Shown here: one piece after another, positions 561 through 35,748 of the stretch
How the letters are laid out: each line of letters starts with the position of its first letter
Position numbering within the stretch: position 1 is the first letter of the stretch
Source: Elusimicrobiota bacterium
Lineage (GTDB): Bacteria; Elusimicrobiota; Elusimicrobia; Elusimicrobiales; UBA9959
Direction of reading: 5' to 3'
Length of the DNA: 64,000 nucleotides
NCBI GenBank assembly: GCA_003450815.1
Contig: DMES01000002.1
Coordinates: 5,591-69,590, forward strand
The notes under the pieces: generated by a model
Told to the model about the DNA's origin: nothing
Database searches by the model: none
The model's input: only the letters and a program-made list of their open reading frames with translations
Made by a program: the position numbers and the translations under genes

Positions 561-1391
561 ATGGAAAAAGACTATAATTTTCTTCTTTTATGCGCAAGCA
601 CTATAGTGTTTGGCGGTTGCGTGCCGCTTGACGAGGCTTCGCTGCCCAAAGCCCAGGCTTCGCGGGCCATGCAAGCGCCTTATAAGGAGCTTTATCCCGG
701 CTATAAAAGCAATGAGAGCCTGCATTTTGTGGTTAAAGCGTATTCTTCCGAAACAACGCAGCGCTACAGTTCCTTGTGTGAAGAAGACTACCAGCGAATC
801 ATGGTCGATCTGGGCATTTACTCCTTTGTGCCTTCAAAGCCTTATAATATCGTCATCTACGGCGATGCGGCTGAATATCATCTTAAAACTTCGCAGCCGG
901 CCTGGTCGGGGGGGATAACATACGGCAATGCCATACTTATTTACGACTTCGAAGGTTCTCCCGGCATTCTGGCCCATGAAATGACGCATCTGGTATTTAA
1001 CGAGTTTATGGGGCTTTCCGCTCCCGAGAGTCTGCGCTGGCTTAATGAAGGTATCGCAGTCTACGAGCAGATGCGCGCCGACTATCCTTCCAAAGCCAGT
1101 TATGAGGGCAAAATAGCGAGTGATATTTCATTGAATCCTATCCCGTTTTCACAGATGATGAACCTGGTACCCCGCGGCGAGAATGATGCCATGGTTGAGC
1201 GCTGGTATGCACAGGCCGGCTCAGTGGCGTCTTTCATGTTAAGGCAGGGCGGCTCGCTCAATTTTTCTTATTTTTTAGGCCGCCTGAAAGACGGACAGGG
1301 GCTGGATGAAGCCGCTGCTGCCTCTTTCGGCGGACTGTGGAAGGATATGAAGGATGTAGAGCGGACCTGGCTATTGGAAATAAAGCGTTAA
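561..1391 (+). CDS. Predicted lipoprotein zinc metallopeptidase (HExxH, MA-clan like)
   Basis: N-terminal hydrophobic signal ending ...IVFGGC (lipobox-like Cys). HEMTH motif (GILAHEMTHLVFNEF) with downstream NEGIAVYE as a possible third ligand. Confidence 0.55.
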   Translation: MEKDYNFLLLCASTIVFGGCVPLDEASLPKAQASRAMQAPYKELYPGYKSNESLHFVVKAYSSETTQRYSSLCEEDYQRIMVDLGIYSFVPSKPYNIVIYGDAAEYHLKTSQPAWSGGITYGNAILIYDFEGSPGILAHEMTHLVFNEFMGLSAPESLRWLNEGIAVYEQMRADYPSKASYEGKIASDISLNPIPFSQMMNLVPRGENDAMVERWYAQAGSVASFMLRQGGSLNFSYFLGRLKDGQGLDEAAAASFGGLWKDMKDVERTWLLEIKR

Positions 1392-1393
1392 TT

Positions 1394-3589
1394 ATGAATT
1401 CCGATGATCCAAAAATAAAGAAAGCCGTGGTTCCCCTTGAAGGCGTGCATTGCGCCTCCTGTGTGGCGCGCATTGAAAAGAGCCTGGGCAATACCCGCGG
1501 TATAGACCGCGTTTCAGTGCACCTTCCTTCAAAAACAGCTTTCCTTTTTTATGACCCCGCTTTGATCACCCCGCTTCAGATAGAGGGGAAAATTGAAGAA
1601 CTCGGCTACAAGGCACTGGCTTTTTCAGAGTCAACGCTGAAGTCGGAAAGCGTGGCGGTGGAATCGCTCCTGCGCGAAAAAGACATGTTCCGCAACCGTT
1701 TCTGGCTTGCGGCCGGCGGAGCCTTGTTTTTGTTTTCAGGCGGTTTTTTTGATCTTTCCCCTTATACCGGCATGCCGGTTGCGGCTGTAGTCTGGCTTTG
1801 GGGAGGCCGGCATTTCCACCAGGGGATGTTTAAGTCTTTAAAGGCCAGAACAGCCAATATGGATACACTGGTTTCCATGAGTACCAGCGTTACTTTTTTT
1901 TACGGGGTGTTTGTCACTCTTTTCCCATCGGTCATCCCGGTTTCATATCACGCCCAGTGGCATGAAGTGGCTATGCTCATAGCTTTCATCAATCTGGGCC
2001 GCTGGCTTGAGGCCCGCTCAAAAAACAAGGCGGGAGAGGCGGTTTCGCGCCTTTTTTCAATTGTGCCCAAGTTCGCCCGCCGTCTTCGGGCGGGCGCCGA
2101 GGAAACCGTGCCGGTTTCAGATATAGTGCCCGGCGATATTGTCAGTCTGCGCCCCGGAGAGCAGGTTCCGGTGGACGGTGTGGTAAAGCGCGGCGCCTCG
2201 GCCCTTGATGAAAGCCTGCTCACCGGCGAGGTACTGCCGGTGGATAAGTTGCCCGGCTCAAAACTTTACGCCGGCACCATAAATAAAAACGGGGCTTTGG
2301 AATTTAAGGCCACCGGTGTCGGAGAGGATATGGTGCTGACAAAAATTATAAAAGCTGTGGCTGAGTCCCAGGCGGCAAAAAGTTCAATACAGCACCTAGT
2401 GGATAAAATTTCGGCCTGGTTCGTGCCGGCTGTTTTTTTTATAGCGGCTTTTTCAGCCGCCGTATGGCTGCGTTACGGAGAACCCTCCCAGGCGGTAAAT
2501 GTCTTTGCCGCGGTACTCGCGGTGGCCTGCCCCTGCGCAATGGGGCTTGCGGTTCCCATGGCGATAGTGGTAGGTTTCGGACGCGCGGCAGCTTCAGGTA
2601 TTCTTATAAGGAACCCTGATGTGCTTGAGCACGCGGCAAAAATTGACGCGGTTTTATTCGACAAGACGGGCACTTTGACCTCGGGGCTGCTTCGGGTAAT
2701 AAATGTAAAACCTAACGATATATCCGAAGGTTCATTCGTAGAATTGCTAGCGTCAGTGGAGGAAAAATCGGAACATCCGCTGGCGCACGCGGTGCGGCAA
2801 TTCGCCGCTGAGCGCGGCATAAAACCGGAGACGCCCGCATCCTTTGAGGCGCTACCCGGGAAAGGCGTAAGGGTTAAGTTGTCGGCGGGCTTGGCGCTTG
2901 CGGGATCCGCCAAGTGGCTTGCGTATAAAGGCGTGTCTATACCGGAGTCCGCGCTTGCCGCGCTTGATGGAACAGAAGGTTCCGCCCTGTTCTTGGCGTT
3001 AAACGGCCAGTTTAAGGGATATGCCGAGTTTGGCGACGCTTTACGACCGGAGGCCCCGGCCGTGCTTCGCGCGCTGAGCGATATGGGAATTGAACCGGTG
3101 CTGGTTTCCGGCGACCGCCAAAAAGCGGTAATGGCTGTGGCGCAAAAGCTTTCCATAAAAACCTTTTACTCTGAAATATTCCCTGAGGAAAAACGGCGGA
3201 TCTTGCTGCGCTACAAGGCCCTTGGCAGAAAGACGGCCATGGTCGGCGACGGATTTAACGACGCCGCGGCTCTTTCCGAGGCCGACATAGGAGTGGCCAT
3301 GCGTTCAGGCGCCGATATCGCCGTGCGTGCGAGCGATATAACCCTTATGAATAACGACCTTTCTTCCCTGGTGGAAGCGGTCAAGCTTTCGAGGGCCATT
3401 AAAAAAGTGATCAACCAGAATCTTTTCTGGGCTTTCGCGTACAATACCGTGCTTATCCCGCTTGCGGCCGGGGCGCTGTATCCTTCTTTGGGCTTTACCA
3501 TCCCGCCCTACTTTGCCGGCGGAGCCATGGCTTTAAGTTCGGTTTCTGTGGTAATTAATTCTCTCAGACTGAGAAAAATGAGAATATGA
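1394..3589 (+). CDS. copA: Copper-translocating P-type ATPase
   Basis: HMA domain GVHCASCVARIE, CPC motif (ACPCAMGLA), DKTGTLT phosphorylation site and GDGFNDAAAL hinge. ATG 1394 (MNSDDPK...) is preferred over the track start 1337, which overlaps the upstream gene. Confidence 0.9.
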   Translation: MNSDDPKIKKAVVPLEGVHCASCVARIEKSLGNTRGIDRVSVHLPSKTAFLFYDPALITPLQIEGKIEELGYKALAFSESTLKSESVAVESLLREKDMFRNRFWLAAGGALFLFSGGFFDLSPYTGMPVAAVVWLWGGRHFHQGMFKSLKARTANMDTLVSMSTSVTFFYGVFVTLFPSVIPVSYHAQWHEVAMLIAFINLGRWLEARSKNKAGEAVSRLFSIVPKFARRLRAGAEETVPVSDIVPGDIVSLRPGEQVPVDGVVKRGASALDESLLTGEVLPVDKLPGSKLYAGTINKNGALEFKATGVGEDMVLTKIIKAVAESQAAKSSIQHLVDKISAWFVPAVFFIAAFSAAVWLRYGEPSQAVNVFAAVLAVACPCAMGLAVPMAIVVGFGRAAASGILIRNPDVLEHAAKIDAVLFDKTGTLTSGLLRVINVKPNDISEGSFVELLASVEEKSEHPLAHAVRQFAAERGIKPETPASFEALPGKGVRVKLSAGLALAGSAKWLAYKGVSIPESALAALDGTEGSALFLALNGQFKGYAEFGDALRPEAPAVLRALSDMGIEPVLVSGDRQKAVMAVAQKLSIKTFYSEIFPEEKRRILLRYKALGRKTAMVGDGFNDAAALSEADIGVAMRSGADIAVRASDITLMNNDLSSLVEAVKLSRAIKKVINQNLFWAFAYNTVLIPLAAGALYPSLGFTIPPYFAGGAMALSSVSVVINSLRLRKMRI

Positions 3590-3649
3590 TTACACGGATT
3601 TAATACGGCGATTACACAGATTGTATCTTGATCCCAGAAACAAAAGTTG
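3588..3649. repeat. Left copy of GATTACAC-rich inverted repeat
   Basis: 3588-3632 is the reverse complement of 4664-4708 with 3 mismatches in 45 nt. Looser complementarity continues to 3649/4647. It starts on the copA stop codon. Confidence 0.85.
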
Positions 3650-3663
3650 GCGAAGGAGTATAT

Positions 3664-4074
3664 ATGAAAACAAAGTTCGGCTATACTTCGGGCCAGGCCC
3701 GCAGCGTGGGGAAAATAACACTGCCGAGTATTGAGGCCTGGGAAAACCAGTACAGACGGGATTACACTATAAAGATAGTCCACCCGGAATTTACCTCCGT
3801 CTGCCCGAAAACAGGTTTGCCTGATTTCGGCACGATTACTGTTGAATATATCCCGGGGAAAATGGTGCTGGAACTTAAGTCGCTTAAGTATTATTTCCTG
3901 CAATACCGAAATATCGGTATTTTTATGGAAAATATAGCGAACCGTGTTCTTGACGATGTGGTGCGGGCTATAAAGCCAAAAAGCTGTACGGTAACCGGAG
4001 AGTTCACCCCCAGAGGCGGCTTACGCTCAGTAATAACCGCACAATACAAGAGAAAACCCCAAAAAATCAGATAA
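3664..4074 (+). CDS. queF: NADPH-dependent 7-cyano-7-deazaguanine (preQ0) reductase, unimodular type
   Basis: PEFTSVCPKTGLPDFGTITVEY and the QueF motif ELKSLKYYF. ATG 3664 is preceded by a GAAGGAG RBS. Confidence 0.85.
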   Translation: MKTKFGYTSGQARSVGKITLPSIEAWENQYRRDYTIKIVHPEFTSVCPKTGLPDFGTITVEYIPGKMVLELKSLKYYFLQYRNIGIFMENIANRVLDDVVRAIKPKSCTVTGEFTPRGGLRSVITAQYKRKPQKIR

Positions 4075-4096
4075 AATGTTGCTTCAACATTTTATT
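4073..4096 (+). terminator. Hairpin overlapping the queF stop
   Basis: aaaatgttg-ctt-caacatttt is a perfect 9-bp stem followed by a T-rich tail. Confidence 0.5.
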
Positions 4097-4119
4097 AGGA
4101 TTTGCGAAAAGAATGCGGG

Positions 4120-4148
4120 TTGCCGTCCTAAAAAATATATTATAAAAT
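4120..4148 (+). promoter_or_regulatory. Sigma70-like promoter candidate (TTGCCG-17-TAAAAT)
   Basis: TTGCCG at 4120-4125, a 17-nt spacer and TAAAAT at 4143-4148. It would drive the non-coding region and tRNA-Val downstream. Confidence 0.4.
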
Positions 4149-4170
4149 CACAGTAAGAGATATCGCTCTT

Positions 4171-4194
4171 CTGTGCAGTGCGGGCGGGGTGCGA
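4171..4194 (+). repeat. 24-nt perfect direct repeat, copy 1
   Basis: ctgtgcagtgcgggcggggtgcga is identical to 4367-4390. Both copies are followed by ..aggccc and a CCC...GGG-closed hairpin. Confidence 0.9.
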
Positions 4195-4366
4195 TAGGCC
4201 CGTGCGAATACCTTCGTTAGAGAGCACGGGTTCCTTTTAGGAGAGGTTCAGTGAGCGTTTCCGGCTTAATGCCGGAATAGCGAACGACGAAGGGGAGCTT
4301 AGCTCCCCTCGTGGAGCACCGGGCCGCGATACCTTTTAAGGCCCGGCGGTTAATCCGCCCCGAACG

Positions 4367-4390
4367 CTGTGCAGTGCGGGCGGGGTGCGA
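4367..4390 (+). repeat. 24-nt perfect direct repeat, copy 2
   Basis: Identical to 4171-4194. Confidence 0.9.
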
Positions 4391-4395
4391 CAGAG

Positions 4396-4445
4396 GCCCA
4401 GTTGGCGCAGCGGGTAGTGCCCTGGGAAAGTATGACACAGTCGGC
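4396..4445 (+). pseudogene. tRNA-Val-derived remnant (5' acceptor and D arm only)
   Basis: gcccagttggcgcagcgggtagtgc (4396-4420) matches the first 24 nt of the intact tRNA at 4480 with one indel and one mismatch. The tgggaaag that follows matches the 3' anticodon stem. No anticodon loop or T arm can be formed. Confidence 0.5.
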
Positions 4446-4479
4446 ATAGCTATTTTCCGGAGCCCGCAAAGCGGTTTTT

Positions 4480-4554
4480 GCCCAGTTGGCGCAGCGGTAG
4501 CGCGTTCCCTTGACATGGGAAAGGTCACAGGTTCGATCCCTGTACTGGGCACCA
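4480..4554 (+). tRNA. tRNA-Val (anticodon GAC), CCA encoded
   Basis: Manual cloverleaf: acceptor GCCCAGT/ACTGGGC, D arm GCGC-AGCGGTA-GCGC, anticodon arm TTCCC-TTGACAT-GGGAA, variable AGGTC, T arm ACAGG-TTCGATC-CCTGT, then A-CCA. Confidence 0.9.
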
Positions 4555-4560
4555 TTTTTA

Positions 4561-4586
4561 GTTCCTGCTCTAACAGCAGCAGGAAC
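4561..4586 (+). other. Perfect 9-bp hairpin after the tRNA (processing or terminator element)
   Basis: gttcctgct-ctaacagc-agcaggaac. No clear T run follows. Confidence 0.4.
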
Positions 4587-4589
4587 AAT

Positions 4590-4633
4590 GATTACACAGA
4601 TTACCGGGGAAGATTACACAGGTTAAGATGTAG
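4590..4633. repeat. Degenerate direct copy of the GATTACAC repeat
   Basis: gattacacagattaccggggaagattacacaggttaagatgtag has the same two GATTACAC words 22-23 nt apart as 3588-3632. It faces the inverted copy at 4647-4708. Confidence 0.6.
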
Positions 4634-4646
4634 TAGTTTGGTTTTA

Positions 4647-4708
4647 CAGCTTTTGTTTCAGAAATCAAGATGCAATCTGTGTAATCGTCGTGTTAAATCC
4701 GTGTAATC
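4647..4708. repeat. Right (inverted) copy of the GATTACAC-rich repeat
   Basis: See 3588-3649. It ends 11 nt before the thrS ATG. Confidence 0.85.
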
Positions 4709-4719
4709 ATAATTCTTTT

Positions 4720-6489
4720 ATGGTAGAAGAAAAACCTGAAAATTATGTTGAAAAAATGCGCCATTCGCTGTCGCATGTCATGGCGGAGGCAGTGGTGGAG
4801 CTTTTCCCCGACACGAAACTGGGTATCGGGCCGGCCATAGAGAACGGTTTTTATTACGATTTTGACACCCCTCATCATTTCGTCCCCGATGATTTGCCCG
4901 CCATAGAAAAGAAAATGCGCCATATTATAGCCCAGGCGCAGAAATTTGAGCGGTCAGAAATGCCGAAGGAAGAAGCGCTAAAGTATTTCAGCGGTCGGGG
5001 TGAAAAGTACAAAGTGGAACTGGTCAGCGACCTGACCGACGGCACTATCAGCATTTATAAAAACGGGCCTTTTTCGGACCTGTGCAAGGGACCGCATGTA
5101 GAGCATACCGGCAAGATCAAGGCCTTTAAGCTTATGTCTATCGCCGGCGCTTACTGGCGCGGCAACGAAGCGAACCCGATGCTTCAGCGCATATACGGCG
5201 TGGCCTTTGAAACTCCGACGGAACTTGACGCCTATATTAAAATGCAGGAGGAGGCGGCAAAGCGCGACCATCGTAAGCTTGGCAAGCAGCAGGAGATTTT
5301 TGTCTTTGACGATGATGTCGGCCCCGGGCTTCCTCTTTGGCTGCCCAACGGCGCTGTGATAATAGAGGAGCTTGAGCGGCTGGCCAAGGAAACCGAGGCC
5401 GCCAGCGGCTATCAACGCGTAAAAACGCCGCATATCTGCAAAGAGACTTTGTACCGAAAAAGCGGCCACCTGCCGTATTATGCGGAAAGCATGTTCCCCG
5501 CGATGGATATTGACGGGCAGAAATATTACCTGAAGCCGATGAACTGCCCGCACCACCACAAGATATACGGCGCCAAGCCCCGCAGCTACCGCGACCTGCC
5601 CGTGCGCCTGGCCGAGTACGGCACCTGCTACCGCTACGAACAGTCCGGAGAGCTTTTTGGCTTGATGCGCGTGCGCTCGATGCAGATGAACGACGCTCAC
5701 ATCTATTGCACACCGGAGCAGTTTCAGGAGGAGTTCCTGGCGGTCTGCCGCATGTATCTTGGCTACTTTAAGATCTTCGGCATAGAAAAGTATGTTATGC
5801 GTTTCAGCACGCATTCAGACGAAGGGTTGGGCAAGAAATATGTGGATAACAAAGAGATGTGGCAGTCCACGGAAAAAATGGTCCATGAGGCCTTGGTTAA
5901 CGGAGGGTTGCCGTTCAAGGAAATCCCCAACGAGGCCGCATTTTACGGCCCGAAGATAGATGTCCAGATCTGGAGCGCCATAGGCAAAGAGTTCTCTTTG
6001 GCAACCAACCAGGTGGACTTTGCCGTGCCGGGCCGCTTCGGCCTGGTGTATAAAGACAAGGACGGTACTGAAAAGACTCCGCTGTGCATACATCGCGCGC
6101 CGCTGGGCACACATGAGCGCTTTGTGGGATTTCTTCTGGAGCATTTCGCCGGCCACTTCCCCTTGTGGCTTGCTCCCACGCAGGTGAAAATTTTAACCAT
6201 TACTTCAAACGAAGAGGATTATGTCCGCGGGATTTCAGATAAACTGAAAGCTGAGGGCTTCAGGGTTTCGCTTGACCTTGGCGCCGATACCATCGGCTCC
6301 AAAGTGCGCCTTGCTGCCATAGAAAAACCTGCCTGCACGCTGATAGCCGGCAAGAAGGAGAAGGCGGAAGGCACCATCGCCCTGCGGCTTAAAGGCGGCA
6401 AAAACCTTTACGGCCTTAAGCCGGATGAGGTTATAGCTAATCTCAAAAAAGAAAGGGACAGCCGCGCGCTCGTCAGCGTGTATATTTAG
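4720..6489 (+). CDS. thrS: Threonine--tRNA ligase, short form without the N-terminal TGS domain
   Basis: Editing-domain HSLSHVMAEAV motif, RDHRKLGK, class II catalytic core (NCPHHHKIY, FGLMRVRSMQMNDAHIY) and an anticodon-binding C-terminus. ATG 4720 (MVEEKPEN) is chosen because the track start 4690 lies inside the repeat. Confidence 0.9.
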   Translation: MVEEKPENYVEKMRHSLSHVMAEAVVELFPDTKLGIGPAIENGFYYDFDTPHHFVPDDLPAIEKKMRHIIAQAQKFERSEMPKEEALKYFSGRGEKYKVELVSDLTDGTISIYKNGPFSDLCKGPHVEHTGKIKAFKLMSIAGAYWRGNEANPMLQRIYGVAFETPTELDAYIKMQEEAAKRDHRKLGKQQEIFVFDDDVGPGLPLWLPNGAVIIEELERLAKETEAASGYQRVKTPHICKETLYRKSGHLPYYAESMFPAMDIDGQKYYLKPMNCPHHHKIYGAKPRSYRDLPVRLAEYGTCYRYEQSGELFGLMRVRSMQMNDAHIYCTPEQFQEEFLAVCRMYLGYFKIFGIEKYVMRFSTHSDEGLGKKYVDNKEMWQSTEKMVHEALVNGGLPFKEIPNEAAFYGPKIDVQIWSAIGKEFSLATNQVDFAVPGRFGLVYKDKDGTEKTPLCIHRAPLGTHERFVGFLLEHFAGHFPLWLAPTQVKILTITSNEEDYVRGISDKLKAEGFRVSLDLGADTIGSKVRLAAIEKPACTLIAGKKEKAEGTIALRLKGGKNLYGLKPDEVIANLKKERDSRALVSVYI

Positions 6490-7190: not shown

Positions 7191-8273
7191 ATGACTAAAA
7201 CCATGCTTGTTACAGGCGGTGCGGGGTTTATCGGCTCAAACTTTATTCGTTTTGTTTTTGAAAAAACCGGGTTTAAAGGGCGGATAGTAAATTTTGACAA
7301 ACTTACTTACGCCGGCCTGCGCGGGAATCTAAGCGATATAGAACGCCGCTTCGGCCCCAAACGGTATGTTTTTATAAAGGGAGACATTTGCAACTTTAAA
7401 AAAGTTAATGCGGTGATTAGAAAATACGATGTTTCAGTAATAGTCAATTTCGCGGCAGAGACCCATGTCGACCGCTCTATACACGGCCCGAGAGAGTTTA
7501 TAGAAACCAATATAACCGGCGCCTTTAACCTGCTTGAGTGCGCCCGGGCCAACTGGAAAAACAGGAAAGACGTCCGGTTCCACCACATCAGCACCGACGA
7601 GGTGTTTGGTTCGCTCGGGAAGACCGGCCGCTTCATGGAAACCACGCCTTACGATCCCAGAAGCCCGTATTCGGCCGCGAAAGCTTCATCCGATCACCTT
7701 GCGCGGGCTTATTTCCACACTTACGGCCTGCCGGTCACTATTTCCAACTGCTCTAATAATTACGGGCCTTACCAGCATCCGGAAAAACTCATCCCGCTGG
7801 CGCTTCTTAAAGCTGTTGACGGCGAGCCCATACCGGTTTATGGCGACGGTGGAAATACGCGCGACTGGCTGTTTGTGGAGGACCACTGCCGGGCCATCTG
7901 GGTTATTCTCAGGCGCGGCAGACCCGGAGAAACATATAATGTGGGCGGCAACTGTGAAAAAAGAAATCTTGAAACCTTGAGGGCGTTATTCCGGGCCCTT
8001 GAAAAACTTAAGCCCTCCGTTAAAAATCAGATGCTTAAAGGGTGCCGCTACGAAGAGCTGATAACTTTTGTGAAAGACCGCGCCGGGCATGATCGACGCT
8101 ATGCAATAGATTCCGGGAAAATCAAGAGAGAATTGGGCTGGAAACCTCGCTTCGGCTTTAGCGAAGGTCTTGAAGCGACTGTCGCCTGGTATCTGGCGCA
8201 TGGCAGCCGGCTGAAAAAAACCGTGGCCGCGTCCTATCGTGCCTGGCTGAAAAAGAACTATATTTTGCGCTGA
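7191..8273 (+). CDS. rfbB: dTDP-glucose 4,6-dehydratase
   Basis: GGAGFIGSNF Rossmann motif, STDEVFG, YSAAKASSDHL (YxxxK) and GETYNVGG. Confidence 0.9.
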   Translation: MTKTMLVTGGAGFIGSNFIRFVFEKTGFKGRIVNFDKLTYAGLRGNLSDIERRFGPKRYVFIKGDICNFKKVNAVIRKYDVSVIVNFAAETHVDRSIHGPREFIETNITGAFNLLECARANWKNRKDVRFHHISTDEVFGSLGKTGRFMETTPYDPRSPYSAAKASSDHLARAYFHTYGLPVTISNCSNNYGPYQHPEKLIPLALLKAVDGEPIPVYGDGGNTRDWLFVEDHCRAIWVILRRGRPGETYNVGGNCEKRNLETLRALFRALEKLKPSVKNQMLKGCRYEELITFVKDRAGHDRRYAIDSGKIKRELGWKPRFGFSEGLEATVAWYLAHGSRLKKTVAASYRAWLKKNYILR

Positions 8274-8313
8274 AAAAGTGTCTCCCCCTTAATTTGCTGA
8301 AATTTGATAATTT

Positions 8314-9810
8314 ATGACCAATAATATTTTCGGCGTAATACTGGCCGGCGGCGCGGGAACCCGCCTTTGGCCGCTTAGCCGAAAGCTTCTGCCAAAACAA
8401 TTTTTGCGCCTTGGAAAAGAAGACTCCCTTTTTGAGAAAACAGTATCAAGAATAACCCCTTTGACCGGTATAAATAATATAGTAGTGGTAACAAATAAAC
8501 TGCACGCCTTCGGCTCGGGCTACCATCAGCTGAAAAAACTGCGAATGCTGATAGAGCCGGAAGCCAGGAACACAGCTCCCGCCATAGGTCTCGCCTGCCT
8601 GTATCTGCTTAAAATATGCGGCAATGACCCAGTTGCCGTGGTGCTTCCCTCAGACCATATGATAGCCGACCGAAAGGCTTTTCTTAAAGTTTTGTCTGTG
8701 GCGGTCAAAGAAGCAGAAAAGGGGAAAATCGTTACGCTCGGCATAACGCCCGATTCCCCTGAAACCGGTTATGGATACATTAAGAGGGGGAAACCGATAA
8801 CAGTCACAAGTCACAAGTCACAAGTCACAAGTCACAAGCCAGAAGTCACAGGTCACAGGTCACAGGTTGTAAACGGGGATTTCTGCGGAGAGGTTTTTAG
8901 TGTTGATAAATTCGTGGAAAAGCCGGATTTTGAGACGGCCCGTAAATATCTGGAAAACGGCGGTTATTACTGGAACGCGGGGATGTTTGTCTTTAAGGCT
9001 TCGGTTATGCTTGAGGAATTTAAAAAATATCTGCCCGCGGCTTATAACCTGCTTGAAAAAATAAATAAAGAGGCTTTTGAAGGTGAAAAAGTAAATTATG
9101 ACGGCCTTGCCACCTTGTTCTCAAAAATGCCGGCCATTTCCATAGACTACGCGGTAATGGAGAAGTCCGATCGGGTTTGCGTTATCCCTTCAAAATTCGG
9201 CTGGAGCGATGTTGGCAGCTGGCATTATTTCTATAGCGCGCTTCCCAAGGACGGGAACGGTAATGTTAAATTAGGAGACGTCCTGGCCCTTGACGCGCGG
9301 GACAACCTGCTCTATTCCGGCAGCAGGCTTGTAACGGCCATAGGTGTTAAGAACCTGGCCATTATAGAAACCAGCGATGCTATTCTGGTTTCGGAGATCA
9401 ACCACTCGCAGAAAGTTAAAAAGATCGTAGATGAGCTAAAAAAACAGAACAGGCGCGAGCTGGACGAGCATATAACCGTGGAGCGCCCCTGGGGTTCTTA
9501 CACGGTGCTTGACGACTTGCCCAACTACAAAGTTAAAAAACTTAAAATTTATCCGGGTCACAAAATAAGCTATCAATACCACAACCGTCGTTCAGAGCAT
9601 TGGTTTGTTGTCAAGGGTTCGGCTGAGGTTACCTTGGACGGGAAAAAGATGAAAATACGGAAAAACCGTCATGTGGACATACCGCTTAAAGCCAGACATA
9701 TGCTCTTTAATCCGGGCCCGGCGGACCTGGAGATAATAGAGGTCCAGTCGGGCGCTTATTTCGGCGAAGACGATATTATCCGTTTAAACGATTTCTACGG
9801 CAGGAAGTAG
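8314..9810 (+). CDS. manC: Mannose-1-phosphate guanylyltransferase / mannose-6-phosphate isomerase (bifunctional type), carrying a repeat-encoded insertion
   Basis: ILAGGAGTRLWPLSR, ETGYGYI, EKPD...YWNAGMFVF and a C-terminal cupin (WGSYTVL..., HRRSEHWFVV). Confidence 0.85.
   Translation: MTNNIFGVILAGGAGTRLWPLSRKLLPKQFLRLGKEDSLFEKTVSRITPLTGINNIVVVTNKLHAFGSGYHQLKKLRMLIEPEARNTAPAIGLACLYLLKICGNDPVAVVLPSDHMIADRKAFLKVLSVAVKEAEKGKIVTLGITPDSPETGYGYIKRGKPITVTSHKSQVTSHKPEVTGHRSQVVNGDFCGEVFSVDKFVEKPDFETARKYLENGGYYWNAGMFVFKASVMLEEFKKYLPAAYNLLEKINKEAFEGEKVNYDGLATLFSKMPAISIDYAVMEKSDRVCVIPSKFGWSDVGSWHYFYSALPKDGNGNVKLGDVLALDARDNLLYSGSRLVTAIGVKNLAIIETSDAILVSEINHSQKVKKIVDELKKQNRRELDEHITVERPWGSYTVLDDLPNYKVKKLKIYPGHKISYQYHNRRSEHWFVVKGSAEVTLDGKKMKIRKNRHVDIPLKARHMLFNPGPADLEIIEVQSGAYFGEDDIIRLNDFYGRK
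8803..8872 (+). repeat. Heptanucleotide tandem repeat inside manC
   Basis: GTCACAA x5 perfect (8803-8837), then gccagaa, GTCACAG x3 and gttgtaa. It encodes ...VTSHKSQVTSHKPEVTGHRSQVV... Confidence 0.9.
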
Positions 9811-12851: not shown

Positions 12852-13954
12852 AAGACAGGTTTTGGGCCGGGAAAAAGGTGTTCCTTACGGGCAATACAGG
12901 CTTTAAGGGAAGCTGGTTGTCGCTGTGGCTAAATAGTATGGGCGCCAAAGTTTATGGCTATGCCCTGAAGCCGCCTACCAGGCCCAGCCTTTTTGATCTT
13001 TGTTCCATCGGCAAAATAACAAACACAACCATCGCCGATATCCGCGACGCTGGCCGCCTTAAAAAGGCGCTTAAAACGGCCTTGCCCGATATAGTTATCC
13101 ATATGGCGGCTCAGCCGCTGGTACGAGAATCTTACCGTGCGCCGGCGGAAACCTACGATACCAACGTGATGGGGACTGTGAACCTGTTGGAGGCTGTGCG
13201 CGCCTGCGGCAGAGTGAGAGCGGTGGTAAATGTCACCACCGACAAGTGCTATGAGAACAAGGAACGTCCGATTGCCTATCGCGAAGGCGAGCCCCTTGGT
13301 GGTTATGACCCGTATTCCTCCAGCAAGGCCTGCTCCGAGCTGGTCACTTCCGCCTACCGCAACTCATTTTTCAACCCCATGTGCTATTCTCTTAACTCTA
13401 AACTCTTAACTCCCAACTCACAACTTTCGTCTCACCATGTGGCTTTAGCTTCGGCCCGCGCGGGCAATGTGATAGGAGGGGGAGACTGGGCGGACGACAG
13501 GCTTATACCGGATATAATACGGGCTGCTTTGAGCGGCAAAAAAGTCCTGATAAGGAACCCCCGCGCAATAAGGCCATGGCAGCATGTGCTTGAGCCTTTG
13601 AGCGGATACCTGCTTCTGGCGCAGAAACTTTACCGGAAGGGCCCCGCCTATGCCCAGGCCTGGAATTTCGGCCCGGTGGAGTCAGACGCTAAAGATGTGG
13701 AATGGATAGTAAAACGCATGTTCCAAAAGTGGAGTGTCGCTCCCGGCTATGTTTTGGACTCATCCCGCCATCCGCATGAGGCCCATTACCTTAAACTGGA
13801 TTCTTCAAAGGCGCGGCGCGCGCTGCTCTGGCGTCCGCGCTGGAATATCGGCCAGGCGATAGACCGGGTTATTGATTGGACAGAAGCCTATACGCGCAAA
13901 GAAGACATGCGAGGGGTCTGTTTAAGGCAGATAGAAGGATATGAAGAGGCATAG
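12848..13954 (+). CDS. rfbG: CDP-glucose 4,6-dehydratase, carrying a repeat-encoded insertion
   Basis: KKVFLTGNTGFKGSWLSLWL, YDPYSSSKACSELV and RAGNVIGGGDW. ATG 12848 overlaps the rfbF stop (ATGA). Confidence 0.85.
   Translation: MKDRFWAGKKVFLTGNTGFKGSWLSLWLNSMGAKVYGYALKPPTRPSLFDLCSIGKITNTTIADIRDAGRLKKALKTALPDIVIHMAAQPLVRESYRAPAETYDTNVMGTVNLLEAVRACGRVRAVVNVTTDKCYENKERPIAYREGEPLGGYDPYSSSKACSELVTSAYRNSFFNPMCYSLNSKLLTPNSQLSSHHVALASARAGNVIGGGDWADDRLIPDIIRAALSGKKVLIRNPRAIRPWQHVLEPLSGYLLLAQKLYRKGPAYAQAWNFGPVESDAKDVEWIVKRMFQKWSVAPGYVLDSSRHPHEAHYLKLDSSKARRALLWRPRWNIGQAIDRVIDWTEAYTRKEDMRGVCLRQIEGYEEA
13389..13437 (+). repeat. Heptamer-periodic tract inside rfbG
   Basis: ctcttaa ctctaaa ctcttaa ctcccaa ctcacaa ctttcgt ctcacca encodes ...SLNSKLLTPNSQLSSHH... 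Confidence 0.7.
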
Positions 13955-14031
13955 CAGTTTAGATGTAAAGCAATTTAGCGGCAGGGTCATTTAGAGGCAC
14001 AGCAGTTTGGAGGCACGAAGGCGTAGAAGAC
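13944..14031. repeat. 8-nt-unit repeat array (GCATAGCA/ATTTAGAG family) overlapping the rfbG stop
   Basis: From 13949 there are 10 consecutive units: gcatagca gtttagat gtaaagca atttagcg gcagggtc atttagag gcacagca gtttggag gcacgaag gcgtagaa. 13944-13970 is the inverted partner of 14459-14485. Confidence 0.8.
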
Positions 14032-14091
14032 ATATCTTTTAGCGGTTAAATTTCTGGACTACCGAATTGTTAAGTGTTGAGCGGAGGGGGT

Positions 14092-14451
14092 ATGGCTGGA
14101 TTATATAAAGGTCTTAAAGTTTGGGAGAACAGTGTAAACCTCATAAAAAATATATATTCGGTAGCGGAAAAGCTGCCTAAAAGCGAGGAATATAACCTCA
14201 AGCAGCAATTAAAAAGGGCGGTAGTTTCGGTAGCGTTAAACATAGCAGAAGGAAAAGGGCGAAAATCAGCGAAAGAATTTTCCAATTTTCTAAATATATC
14301 GTTCGGATCTTTATGTGAAGTGGAAGCTATATTAACTTTGTGCCAAGAATTGAACTATCTTTCCAATCTGGAAGATACTTTCTCGCGCATAGAAGTGTTA
14401 TTAAAAATGCTCTCTTCTTTAAAAAATAGTTTGGCTGAGAAACAGTCTTAA
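14092..14451 (+). CDS. Four-helix-bundle protein (family formerly called 23S rRNA intervening-sequence protein)
   Basis: LKVWENSVNL...LPKSEEYNLKQQLKRAVVSVALNIAEGKGRKSAKEFSNFLNISFGSLCEVE is the characteristic pattern. GGAGGGGG RBS before ATG 14092. Confidence 0.75.
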   Translation: MAGLYKGLKVWENSVNLIKNIYSVAEKLPKSEEYNLKQQLKRAVVSVALNIAEGKGRKSAKEFSNFLNISFGSLCEVEAILTLCQELNYLSNLEDTFSRIEVLLKMLSSLKNSLAEKQS

Positions 14452-14456
14452 ATGTT

Positions 14457-14495
14457 GTCTTTACATCTAAATTGCTTTGCCTCTTTGCATCTATC
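14457..14495. repeat. Reverse-orientation 8-nt-unit repeat (same family)
   Basis: The sequence is gtctttacatctaaattgctttgcctctttgcatctatc. 14459-14485 is the reverse complement of 13944-13970 with 25/27 identity. Confidence 0.8.
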
Positions 14496-15265: not shown

Positions 15266-15368
15266 AGACAGAATGCAGAAGTCAGAATACAGAATAGCCG
15301 CTCTCAATAAGCTTCCGATAGCTTTTGCCGCTTTCTGGCTTCTGAATTCTGACTCCTGACTTCCTGAA
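15266..15368. repeat. Two-armed heptamer repeat element
   Basis: The left arm reads cagaatg cagaagt cagaata cagaata. The right arm reads ttctggc ttctgaa ttctgac tcctgac, so the arms are complementary. Confidence 0.75.
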
Positions 15369-35614: not shown

Positions 35615-35748
35615 TGTAGTCGCAGAGCTTGCTCTGCCCAAAAAATCCAGCGGTAGGGATCTGCCGTGCTATTTGGCGGATACTCTGCCGGACAAGTCTA
35701 TCTATGCGTTCCGAACGCAAATTAGGCAAAGCAAGCTTTGCGACTACA
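35615..35748. repeat. Hairpin/TIR repeat family B, copy 1 (134 bp)
   Basis: The left end tgtagtcgcagagcttgctctgccc and right end ggcaaagcaagctttgcgactaca are inverted repeats. Each end is itself a palindrome. Confidence 0.85.

Follow-up and report, generated by a model that had tools for sequence, protein, structure and literature searches.

Inverted repeats around queF and tRNA-Val in an Elusimicrobia genome as probable gene-less members of a palindromic-element family linked to GxxExxY genes

In this study, we revisited the inverted repeats that bracket queF and a tRNA-Val gene between copA and thrS in a 64,000-nt stretch of an Elusimicrobiota genome (GenBank assembly GCA_003450815.1, contig DMES01000002.1, positions 5,591 to 69,590 of the forward strand; this whole stretch is called the window and its coordinates are used throughout). 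An initial annotation had offered three readings of these repeats, namely an invertible or mobilised cassette, footprints resembling miniature inverted-repeat transposable elements (MITEs), or paired hairpins that insulate transcripts. Our analysis indicates that the locus probably carries two members of a single family of small palindromic elements, neither of them with a gene, whereas the full-length form of the family contains a gene for a GxxExxY protein, and that both copies would be relics by the mechanism proposed below. Most likely, they are non-autonomous relics of a nuclease-linked selfish element resembling the intervening sequences (IVSs) of rRNA. For the locus itself this result is deflationary; the repeats, however, lead to a broader pattern, since their 13-nt motif recurs with hardly a letter changed in over 100 genome stretches, which among the matches listed represent at least 15 phylum-level groups.

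Results

Repeats and genes at the copA-thrS locus

A repeat search of the window returned a pair of inverted 65-nt arms at 3585-3649 and 4647-4711, with 89% complementarity and 997 nt between them, and a second pair at 4583-4624 and 4674-4715 (42 nt, 74% complementary). In the alignment, the 45-mer at 3588-3632 differs from the reverse complement of 4664-4708 by 3 mismatches. The repeat coordinates in the initial annotation were all correct, including the extension to 3649 and 4647 and the third, degenerate arm opposite the right copy, which is the 4583-4624 arm of the second pair. The boundaries that it described are borne out by the gene positions: the open reading frame (ORF) of copA spans 1337-3589 and its TGA stop at 3587-3589 overlaps the first repeat base, and the ATG of thrS is at 4720, 11 nt past the repeat end at 4708. 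What had been overlooked is the dimeric substructure of the arms. Each arm is a dimer of the 13-mer GATTACACRGATT with 22-nt spacing, the dimers starting at 3588/3610, 4590/4612 and 4674/4696 with the same spacing in each pair. The 64-kb window contains six copies of the 13-mer, every one of them at the copA-thrS locus, where shuffles lead one to expect 0.05. With plus- and minus-strand copies written as + and -, 4590-4708 is a complete element of the form ++-- with a 49-nt loop, and 3588-3622 is a solo ++ half. The three arms are designated H1 (solo half) and H3 and H2 (left and right arm of the complete element); reverse-complemented, H2 is 89% identical to H1.

As had also been described, the interval between the arms holds queF, a non-coding stretch, a 24-nt remnant of a tRNA 5' end (4396-4419) and tRNA-Val(GAC), and it holds no recombinase. 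The Pfam matches bear out the assignments of copA (E1-E2 ATPase with an HMA domain), queF and thrS, and ARAGORN and Rfam both give one tRNA-Val(GAC) at 4480-4554. This tRNA was the sole match to Rfam 15, which gave nothing relevant in 3500-4800 even at E values up to 10. The features are as follows, where numbers beginning with L denote other genome loci, among them relatives of the window.

3585-3649, plus strand: H1, solo half-element in the copA/queF spacer; its terminus TGATTACAC overlaps the copA stop TGA at 3587-3589
3588-3600 (GATTACACGGATT) and 3610-3622 (GATTACACAGATT), plus strand: the 13-mers of H1, from motif mapping
3623-3649, plus strand: inner 27 nt of H1, homologous to the loop-proximal part of the thrS-side element
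3664-4074, plus strand: queF (PF14489), an ancestral host gene and not cargo
4480-4554, plus strand: tRNA-Val(GAC), an ancestral host gene, at the equivalent position in L122, L125, L126, L127 and L208
4561-4587, plus strand: GC-rich short hairpin gttcctgctctaacagcagcaggaac, directly 3' of tRNA-Val and outside the element
4588-4624, plus strand: H3, left arm of the complete palindromic element, with 13-mers at 4590-4602 (GATTACACAGATT) and 4612-4624 (GATTACACAGGTT, 1 mismatch)
4625-4673, no strand: loop of the complete element, 49 nt, with no ORF and no GxxExxY remnant
4647-4711, minus strand: H2, right arm with the loop-proximal 27 nt; 13-mers at 4674-4686 and 4696-4708 on the minus strand, ending in GTGTAATCAT

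The AACAGCAGG core of the hairpin behind tRNA-Val is present at the equivalent position in relatives.

Size, layout and placement of the motif family

One genome per species (596 Gb in total) was searched for exact matches to a dimer query consisting of GATTACACNGATT, 7-11 nt and a second GATTACACNGATT. The dimer was found in more than 119 genome stretches, which is a lower bound, compared with a calculated chance expectation of about 0.02. The counts of architecture, placement, conservation and neighbours that follow were made among the matches listed (119 motif loci), and for the architecture every motif copy with up to 2 mismatches was mapped. The carriers bear at least 15 phylum-level labels. 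Their record titles name Elusimicrobia, Omnitrophota, Bacteroidota (many of them Mucilaginibacter), Ignavibacteriaceae, Deltaproteobacteria/Syntrophaceae, Nitrospirae, Nitrospinota, Planctomycetia/Brocadiaceae, Cloacimonadota, WOR-3, Aerophobetes, Atribacterota, Desantisbacteria, Stahlbacteria, Gemmatimonadaceae, Clostridia and Gammaproteobacteria. The commonest layout is ++-- (39, plus close variants), which spans about 75-125 nt around a variable centre, followed by the solo ++ form (31), and within an arm the motif copies are spaced by 20-23 nt across the family. The window has one of each standard form, a compact palindrome and a solo half, and its repeats are ordinary for their family. 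The family is apparently undescribed: neither the motif nor the architecture was found described in the literature searched, a search that is itself incomplete.

The elements lie mostly between co-directional genes (92 of 113), with medians, for the same 113, of 30 nt from the upstream stop codon and 20 nt to the downstream start codon, and the positions of H1 on the copA stop and of H2 just before the thrS start fit this placement. In solo halves, a right half beside a start codon was seen 19 times and a left half beside a stop codon 6 times, patterns into which H2 and H1, respectively, fit. The more frequent retention of the start-proximal half may reflect a contribution to expression of the downstream gene. 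Around the elements lie housekeeping genes, among them rpsL/rpsG, atp, gatB, trpS and ABC transporters. Some sites recur in distant lineages: rpsL/rpsG in Mucilaginibacter and in a Planctomycetia metagenome-assembled genome (MAG) (L021, L041, L047), and rpsK/rpsD and pstB/phoU in several metagenome contigs (L143-L168).

Linkage of the motif to GxxExxY genes

The sole non-housekeeping family that recurs near the elements is a protein of about 122 amino acids. Its gene lies exactly between the ++ and -- arms in L082, L078 and L067 and adjoins arms in L054 and L109. The protein belongs to PF13366 (PDDEXK_3) and TIGR04256 (GxxExxY), with E values of 1e-35 to 1e-38, and its D...ExK residues are invariant. 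PDDEXK_3 has been listed as of unknown function and with multiple transfers (PMC3424549).

The same association was seen from the protein outward, in 80 metagenome loci that encode the closest relatives of the ~122-amino-acid GxxExxY protein. The motif is present within 150 nt of the gene in 57 of these loci, where about 0.02 chance matches per locus are expected (calculated), and on both sides of the gene in 42. Save for a few composite cases, + copies are upstream and - copies downstream of the gene, and motif and coding sequence interlock: the - copy starts at the second base of the TAA stop in 14 loci, and the ATG is formed by the last three bases of the inner + copy (GATTACACAGATG) in 8. 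At recurrent sites such as rpsK/rpsD and pstB/phoU, the GxxExxY gene is co-oriented with the host operon. Distant GxxExxY clades without GATTACAC have other motifs (CACGAAA, GTTTAAATC, TGATGnAAAC) in the same phased inverted layout, and the motif class follows the clustering of the GxxExxY proteins. The flanks of such other-clade genes (L185, L187, L195 and similar loci) show CATTGATGTAAACAGAT with a period of about 20 nt, CTGTTTAAATC with one of about 10-11 nt and CACGAAAG with one of about 8-10 nt; at some of these loci the start codon again overlaps the last repeat.

Solo halves abut GxxExxY fragments or genes in L057, L114, L054, L109 and L023, and the gene is truncated in L057, L114 and L023, which therefore suggests a decay series from ORF-bearing through truncated to miniature elements. 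Literature searches on the motif and GxxExxY, incomplete in coverage, returned nothing relevant.

Conservation of sequence rather than pairing

Conservation was assessed in 54 distinct ++-- elements. The free N position of the motif pairs with its partner no more often than expected by chance (outer copies, 17 against 19.9 expected; inner copies, 27 against 23.7), departures from the motif are single in 97 cases and compensated in the partner in 2, which equals the mismatched-partner control, and the spacers, which are A-rich, are not more complementary than with shuffled partners (0.40 vs 0.42). A T precedes the outer copy in 71%, giving TGATTACAC. With no covariation at N, uncompensated deviations and non-complementary spacers, selection for hairpin pairing was rejected. 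What is under selection is the sequence and phasing of each 13-mer, and this points to arrays that would be recognised by a protein rather than to hairpin maintenance.

These data bear on an explanation at the RNA level, modelled on rRNA operon stems and rRNA IVSs, according to which H1 pairs with H2 in a copA-queF-tRNA-Val-thrS co-transcript and the resulting duplex of about 65 bp, enclosing queF, the structured non-coding RNA and tRNA-Val, is cut by RNase III so as to separate the three expression units. All genes are indeed on one strand with short spacers, the predicted H1-H2 duplex is far more stable than that of H3 with H2 (-93.4 vs -42.3 kcal/mol), and the minimum-energy fold of a 1171-nt model transcript pairs 61 of the 65 H2 bases with H1. 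Cleavage by RNase III of IVSs with 28-bp terminal stems provides a precedent (PMC4990558). We nevertheless consider such a long-range stem unlikely, as the pairing is not conserved across the family and the co-transcript is itself a model, the nearer arm H3 competes with H1 for H2, and a promoter-like site at 4120-4148 suggests a separate tRNA transcript. Moreover, H1 is missing in every relative examined, so that any such role would be recent and dispensable. The RNA of 4555-4722, with the local H3-H2 hairpin, has a predicted fold of -56.3 kcal/mol (z = -6.9). Transcript insulation, as first suggested for the repeats, may be a side effect.

That sequence rather than pairing is conserved would also suit operators of a host transcription factor, with the phased 13-mers regulating queF and thrS and similar regulons existing elsewhere, as would direct repeats phased by two helical turns in a palindromic arrangement close to start codons. 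This reading is very improbable, however, because the 13-mer stands beside the unrelated housekeeping genes listed above (rpsL/rpsG, atp, gatB, trpS, ABC transporters) in at least 15 phylum-level groups and is missing at the same genes in close relatives, because whole elements are duplicated within genomes, and because the motif is tied to one small gene family and physically encloses its genes.

Absence of target-site duplications and of a recurrent transposase

Flank matches of 2-5 nt at offsets of 0-4 in 57 elements showed no target-site duplication above the shuffled-partner control. The arrangement in the window, in which TGATTACAC...GTGTAATCA is bordered by TA on each side, is suggestive, but neither a TA nor any other duplication holds family-wide. 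A recurrent transposase or recombinase was likewise rejected, all-against-all clustering of the ORFs in the 119 loci (about 900 kb) having yielded housekeeping families and GxxExxY only. A viral origin was rejected on the basis of only 12 matches in 2.9 million viral contigs.

Among the three readings in the initial annotation, that of MITE-like footprints came closest: the window copies are ORF-less members of a multi-copy family that spans many phyla, but there is no target-site duplication, and in the full-length form a GxxExxY gene takes the place of a transposase. A related proposal would be that they are repeats of the repetitive extragenic palindromic (REP) or bacterial interspersed mosaic element (BIME) kind, mobilised by a REP-associated tyrosine transposase (RAYT; a Y1 HUH transposase), or a classical DDE-type MITE. 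Short palindromic intergenic repeats within operons, in doublets and in many copies per genome, would agree with this, and so would a Y1_Tnp gene (PF01797) just 3' of thrS in the relative L127, where it is followed by a toxin-antitoxin-like set (Gp49, dnstrm_HI1420; 8210-8803). However, L127 itself lacks the GATTACAC motif, phmmer and tblastn searches with its Y1_Tnp as query found no homologue in the window or the 119 motif loci, no transposase family recurs near the elements, and a target-site duplication was seen at no tested offset or length. REPs are also species-specific, unlike the cross-phylum 13-mer. We therefore give this proposal very little credence.

Synteny and the same spacers in relatives

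ThrS places the window in the Elusimicrobia, with GWC2_51_8 as the best named match (88%). The thrS neighbourhoods of relatives at 94, 88, 87, 77 and 76% ThrS identity were compared. In the four whose contigs reach far enough (L122, L123, L126 and L127; 76-88% identity), Peptidase_MA_2, copA, queF, tRNA-Val(GAC) and thrS have identical order and orientation. In two of these, L126 and L127, the GATTACAC motif is absent even when two mismatches are allowed, and the copA-queF gap of L127 is only 10 nt. It follows that the genes from queF to tRNA-Val are ancestral and that the repeats arrived later, in two adjoining spacers; the arrangement is ordinary conserved synteny rather than a mobile or invertible cassette. 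H1, which was not found in any relative examined, is a recent arrival; in L122, the copA/queF spacer is 34 nt long and without the repeat, and the tRNA-Val/thrS spacer has a diverged two-plus-two element with the variant GATTACRGCGAT. At the latter spacer, the closest relative L208 (94%; 110-210) and L124 (50-140) and L125 (125-215; both 87%) have another palindrome with AGGGG/CCCCT periods of about 10 nt. Hairpin elements therefore turn over quickly at one site, and this spacer is a hot spot of palindromic-element turnover. Two assemblies with the same QueF agree with the window over copA, H1 and queF; only L001 extends to thrS, where it also matches.

The initial annotation had named, as grounds for giving up mobility, a generic intergenic repeat with neither empty sites nor an alternative orientation in relatives. 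This is borne out in part: the repeat unit is generic and intergenic, and no relative lacks the cassette or has it inverted, but repeat-free sites do exist in relatives. The cassette that it proposed, in which recombination at the 65-nt repeats would invert the 1.1-kb queF-tRNA segment or move it as one block, could appeal to the 89% identity of the inverted repeats and to a family that encloses GxxExxY cargo, with the left arm near an upstream stop and the right arm near a downstream start as in the window, but it is extremely improbable given that order and orientation are the same in four relatives, two of them without repeats, that a single orientation also holds in the two assemblies (over copA, H1 and queF, and to thrS in L001 alone), that no recombinase is encoded by the segment or up to about 5 kb away from it (a peptidase, copA, thrS, rmlC and rmlB adjoin it), and that the only recurrent cargo of the family is the GxxExxY gene of about 370 nt.

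Several other features of these spacers were noted. L126 has an insertion of about 300 nt between copA and queF (4935-5230) with yet another type of inverted repeat (CACAAAAGGCACA...). The thrS leader of the window (4709-4722; AATCATAATTCTTTTATG) has no recognisable Shine-Dalgarno sequence, and the leaders differ in L126 and L127. The non-coding stretch between queF and tRNA-Val (4120-4395) has the promoter-like site at 4120-4148; promoter and terminator scans of 3400-4900 gave sites not in excess of shuffles. The stretch also contains a 27-nt direct repeat (4171-4197 and 4367-4393, 96%), and this 27-mer is a conserved leader immediately upstream of tRNA-Val in L208 and L125. The region 4150-4400 is predicted to form a multi-branch fold (-119.6 kcal/mol, z = -4.35) and matches no Rfam family. 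A duplicate of the tRNA-Val 5' end, comprising its first 24 nt (GCCCAGTTGGCGCAGCGGGTAG, with one extra G), lies 84 nt upstream of the intact gene, and the sequence that follows it is unrelated; an insertion or duplication of about 66-196 nt seems to have taken place in the 5' part of the tRNA-Val gene (4396-4479).

Probable intragenomic copying

Over 65 nt, arms of different genomes have an identity of 0.68 +/- 0.05 (99.9th percentile, 0.85), compared with 0.89 for H1 and H2. The match of H1 to the reverse complement of H2 runs from the terminus across 27 nt of the loop and stops at the queF ribosome-binding site. Copies within genomes were seen elsewhere: L038 has a complete ++-- element twice, at a distance of 2 kb, with near-identity from GATTACAC to GTGTAATCAAT and unrelated flanks, and the arms of L046 and L070, two contigs of one Elusimicrobia MAG, are 0.91 identical. 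Most simply, H1 would have arisen as a second copy of the thrS-side element, inverted and incomplete; alternatively, two older copies may have become alike through gene conversion.

Discussion

We propose the following model for the elements. The family is built on the 13-nt GATTACACNGATT, which recurs at intervals of 20-23 nt, as a rule with two copies in each arm of an inverted pair, and in the full-length form the arms enclose the gene for the ~122-amino-acid GxxExxY protein, the start and stop codons of which often fall within the inner motif copies. The motif arrays would be binding or cleavage sites of this element-encoded nuclease-fold protein, which would promote copying of the element without target-site duplication. 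ORF-less copies would be deletion derivatives that depend on a GxxExxY protein in trans; they would survive, and at times be copied anew, in short spacers between co-transcribed housekeeping genes. A GxxExxY ORF is absent from the window, and the copies there are therefore the ORF-less form; the bracketing of queF and tRNA-Val would be a by-product of landing in adjacent spacers.

Several points weigh against this model. Searches of the 64-kb window with hidden Markov models and tblastn found no GxxExxY gene or remnant, and the trans-acting protein is thus putative. Binding of the motif by GxxExxY proteins is a prediction, and the co-variation of motif and protein could reflect simple linkage. 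The AlphaFold model of the GxxExxY protein is mediocre (predicted local distance difference test score of 65.7); modest as it is, it has an alpha-alpha-beta-beta-beta-alpha-beta order like that of PD-(D/E)XK enzymes, but a Foldseek comparison with the PDB gave no significant match for it, nor did a sequence search of the PDB return anything. The greater likeness of H1 to H2 (89%) than of H2 to H3 (74%) is not predicted by a simple view of two independent relics, and a recent copying or gene-conversion event is therefore needed. Finally, no clean pair of empty and filled sites with exact junctions was found.

With the model of gene-less relics in mind, a wider hypothesis can be put forward tentatively, to which we would give somewhat less than even weight. 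GxxExxY proteins might be the mobilising nucleases of an unrecognised class of duplication-free palindromic elements, each protein clade recognising its own phased arrays, the inner sites of which contain the start and stop codons; the ORF-less copies would be their non-autonomous offspring, dispersed over housekeeping operons of many phyla, and the four-helix-bundle IVS proteins would stand in a similar frame. In this way PF13366 and, by parallel, PF05635, two very common protein families without a known function, gain a concrete hypothesis that is open to testing. The pattern also hints at where many of the short palindromes in the operon spacers of bacteria come from, and at a connection with the IVSs of rRNA, which have long lacked an explanation. 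Several cultured Mucilaginibacter strains carry elements, which makes experiments feasible; carriers of the motif include M. kameinonensis, M. lappiensis and M. pankratovii.

The elements share traits with several known systems. Like them, REP/BIME repeats (REPINs) are short palindromic repeats of operon spacers that can form hairpins as doublets, and most likely a protein whose gene lies elsewhere acts on their many non-autonomous copies. Unlike in the REP/RAYT system, no Y1 transposase is associated with the palindromic elements, the gene is enclosed by the repeats and is predicted to encode a PD-(D/E)XK fold, and the motif crosses phyla. The Correia/NEMIS and ERIC MITEs are also about 100 nt long, ORF-less and with inverted ends, and are inserted beside genes with which they are co-transcribed; the palindromic elements differ from them in the absence of a target-site duplication, in ends that are multi-site arrays rather than simple terminal repeats, and in spacers and loops that are unrelated between copies, only the 13-mers being maintained.

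Integron attC sites, too, lie between closely spaced genes as imperfect palindromes of 60-140 nt, each with two pairs of protein sites and a variable centre. However, the two sites within an arm of a palindromic element are direct and not inverted, no integrase was seen near the locus, and the flanking housekeeping genes are conserved and fixed in order. The ends of Tn7 and Mu have several direct protein-binding sites per end, spaced by about 22 bp and inverted between the ends, and their termini begin TG...CA, which the T before the outer copy of the palindromic elements recalls. In contrast to Tn7 and Mu, the elements have no DDE transposase and no 5-bp duplication, and their cargo is only about 370 nt.

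Genes and repeats of similar design were noted in the window and in relatives. At 14074-14451, the window encodes a four-helix-bundle '23S rRNA IVS protein' (PF05635, TIGR02436; whole feature 13944-14485), which is framed by inverted arrays with a period of about 16 nt (13944-14011 and 14459-14485, 93% over 27 nt); the design is like that of the GxxExxY elements, but the motif and the gene family are others. L122 (88% ThrS identity) has a PF05635 gene (5302-5664, within 5245-5760) between queF and tRNA-Val, where the window has the non-coding RNA, and this gene is framed by inverted arrays with a 10-nt period (GCAACGGAAAGCTACTGAAGGCTATGGAAGG...). L123, with the same ThrS as L122, has an extra PF05635 gene for 75 amino acids between exbD and tonB that is missing in L122, a presence/absence polymorphism. 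An ORF-less palindrome in the window at 15271-15363, with short periodic arms (GAATGCAGAAGTCAGAATACAGAA and TTCTGAATTCTGACTCCTGACTTC, 83%) and a 45-nt loop, may be a further miniature element of the same general design, and a 27-nt inverted repeat at 35615-35748 (89%, 80-nt loop) is non-periodic.

The IVSs of 23S rRNA, some of which contain an S23p/23S_rRNA_IVP ORF (PF05635), are compared last. They have been described as selfish, framed by inverted repeats and sometimes provided with a PF05635 ORF, and they are excised by RNase III, which cuts the stem (PMC4990558; PMC11270868). Like the palindromic elements, they are small insertions of a selfish kind whose terminal inverted repeats pair into a stem, with a short ORF or no ORF inside, their distribution is sporadic, they are thought to be horizontally transferred, and they reside within highly transcribed units. 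They differ in that elements of the kind found in the window lie in the spacers of protein-coding and tRNA operons and not in rRNA helices, have arms that are phased arrays of a 13-nt motif conserved across phyla, and enclose, where a gene is present, one for a GxxExxY protein of the PD-(D/E)XK type. By analogy with the IVSs, the arms of the palindromic elements are predicted to form, and may also serve as, an RNA stem.

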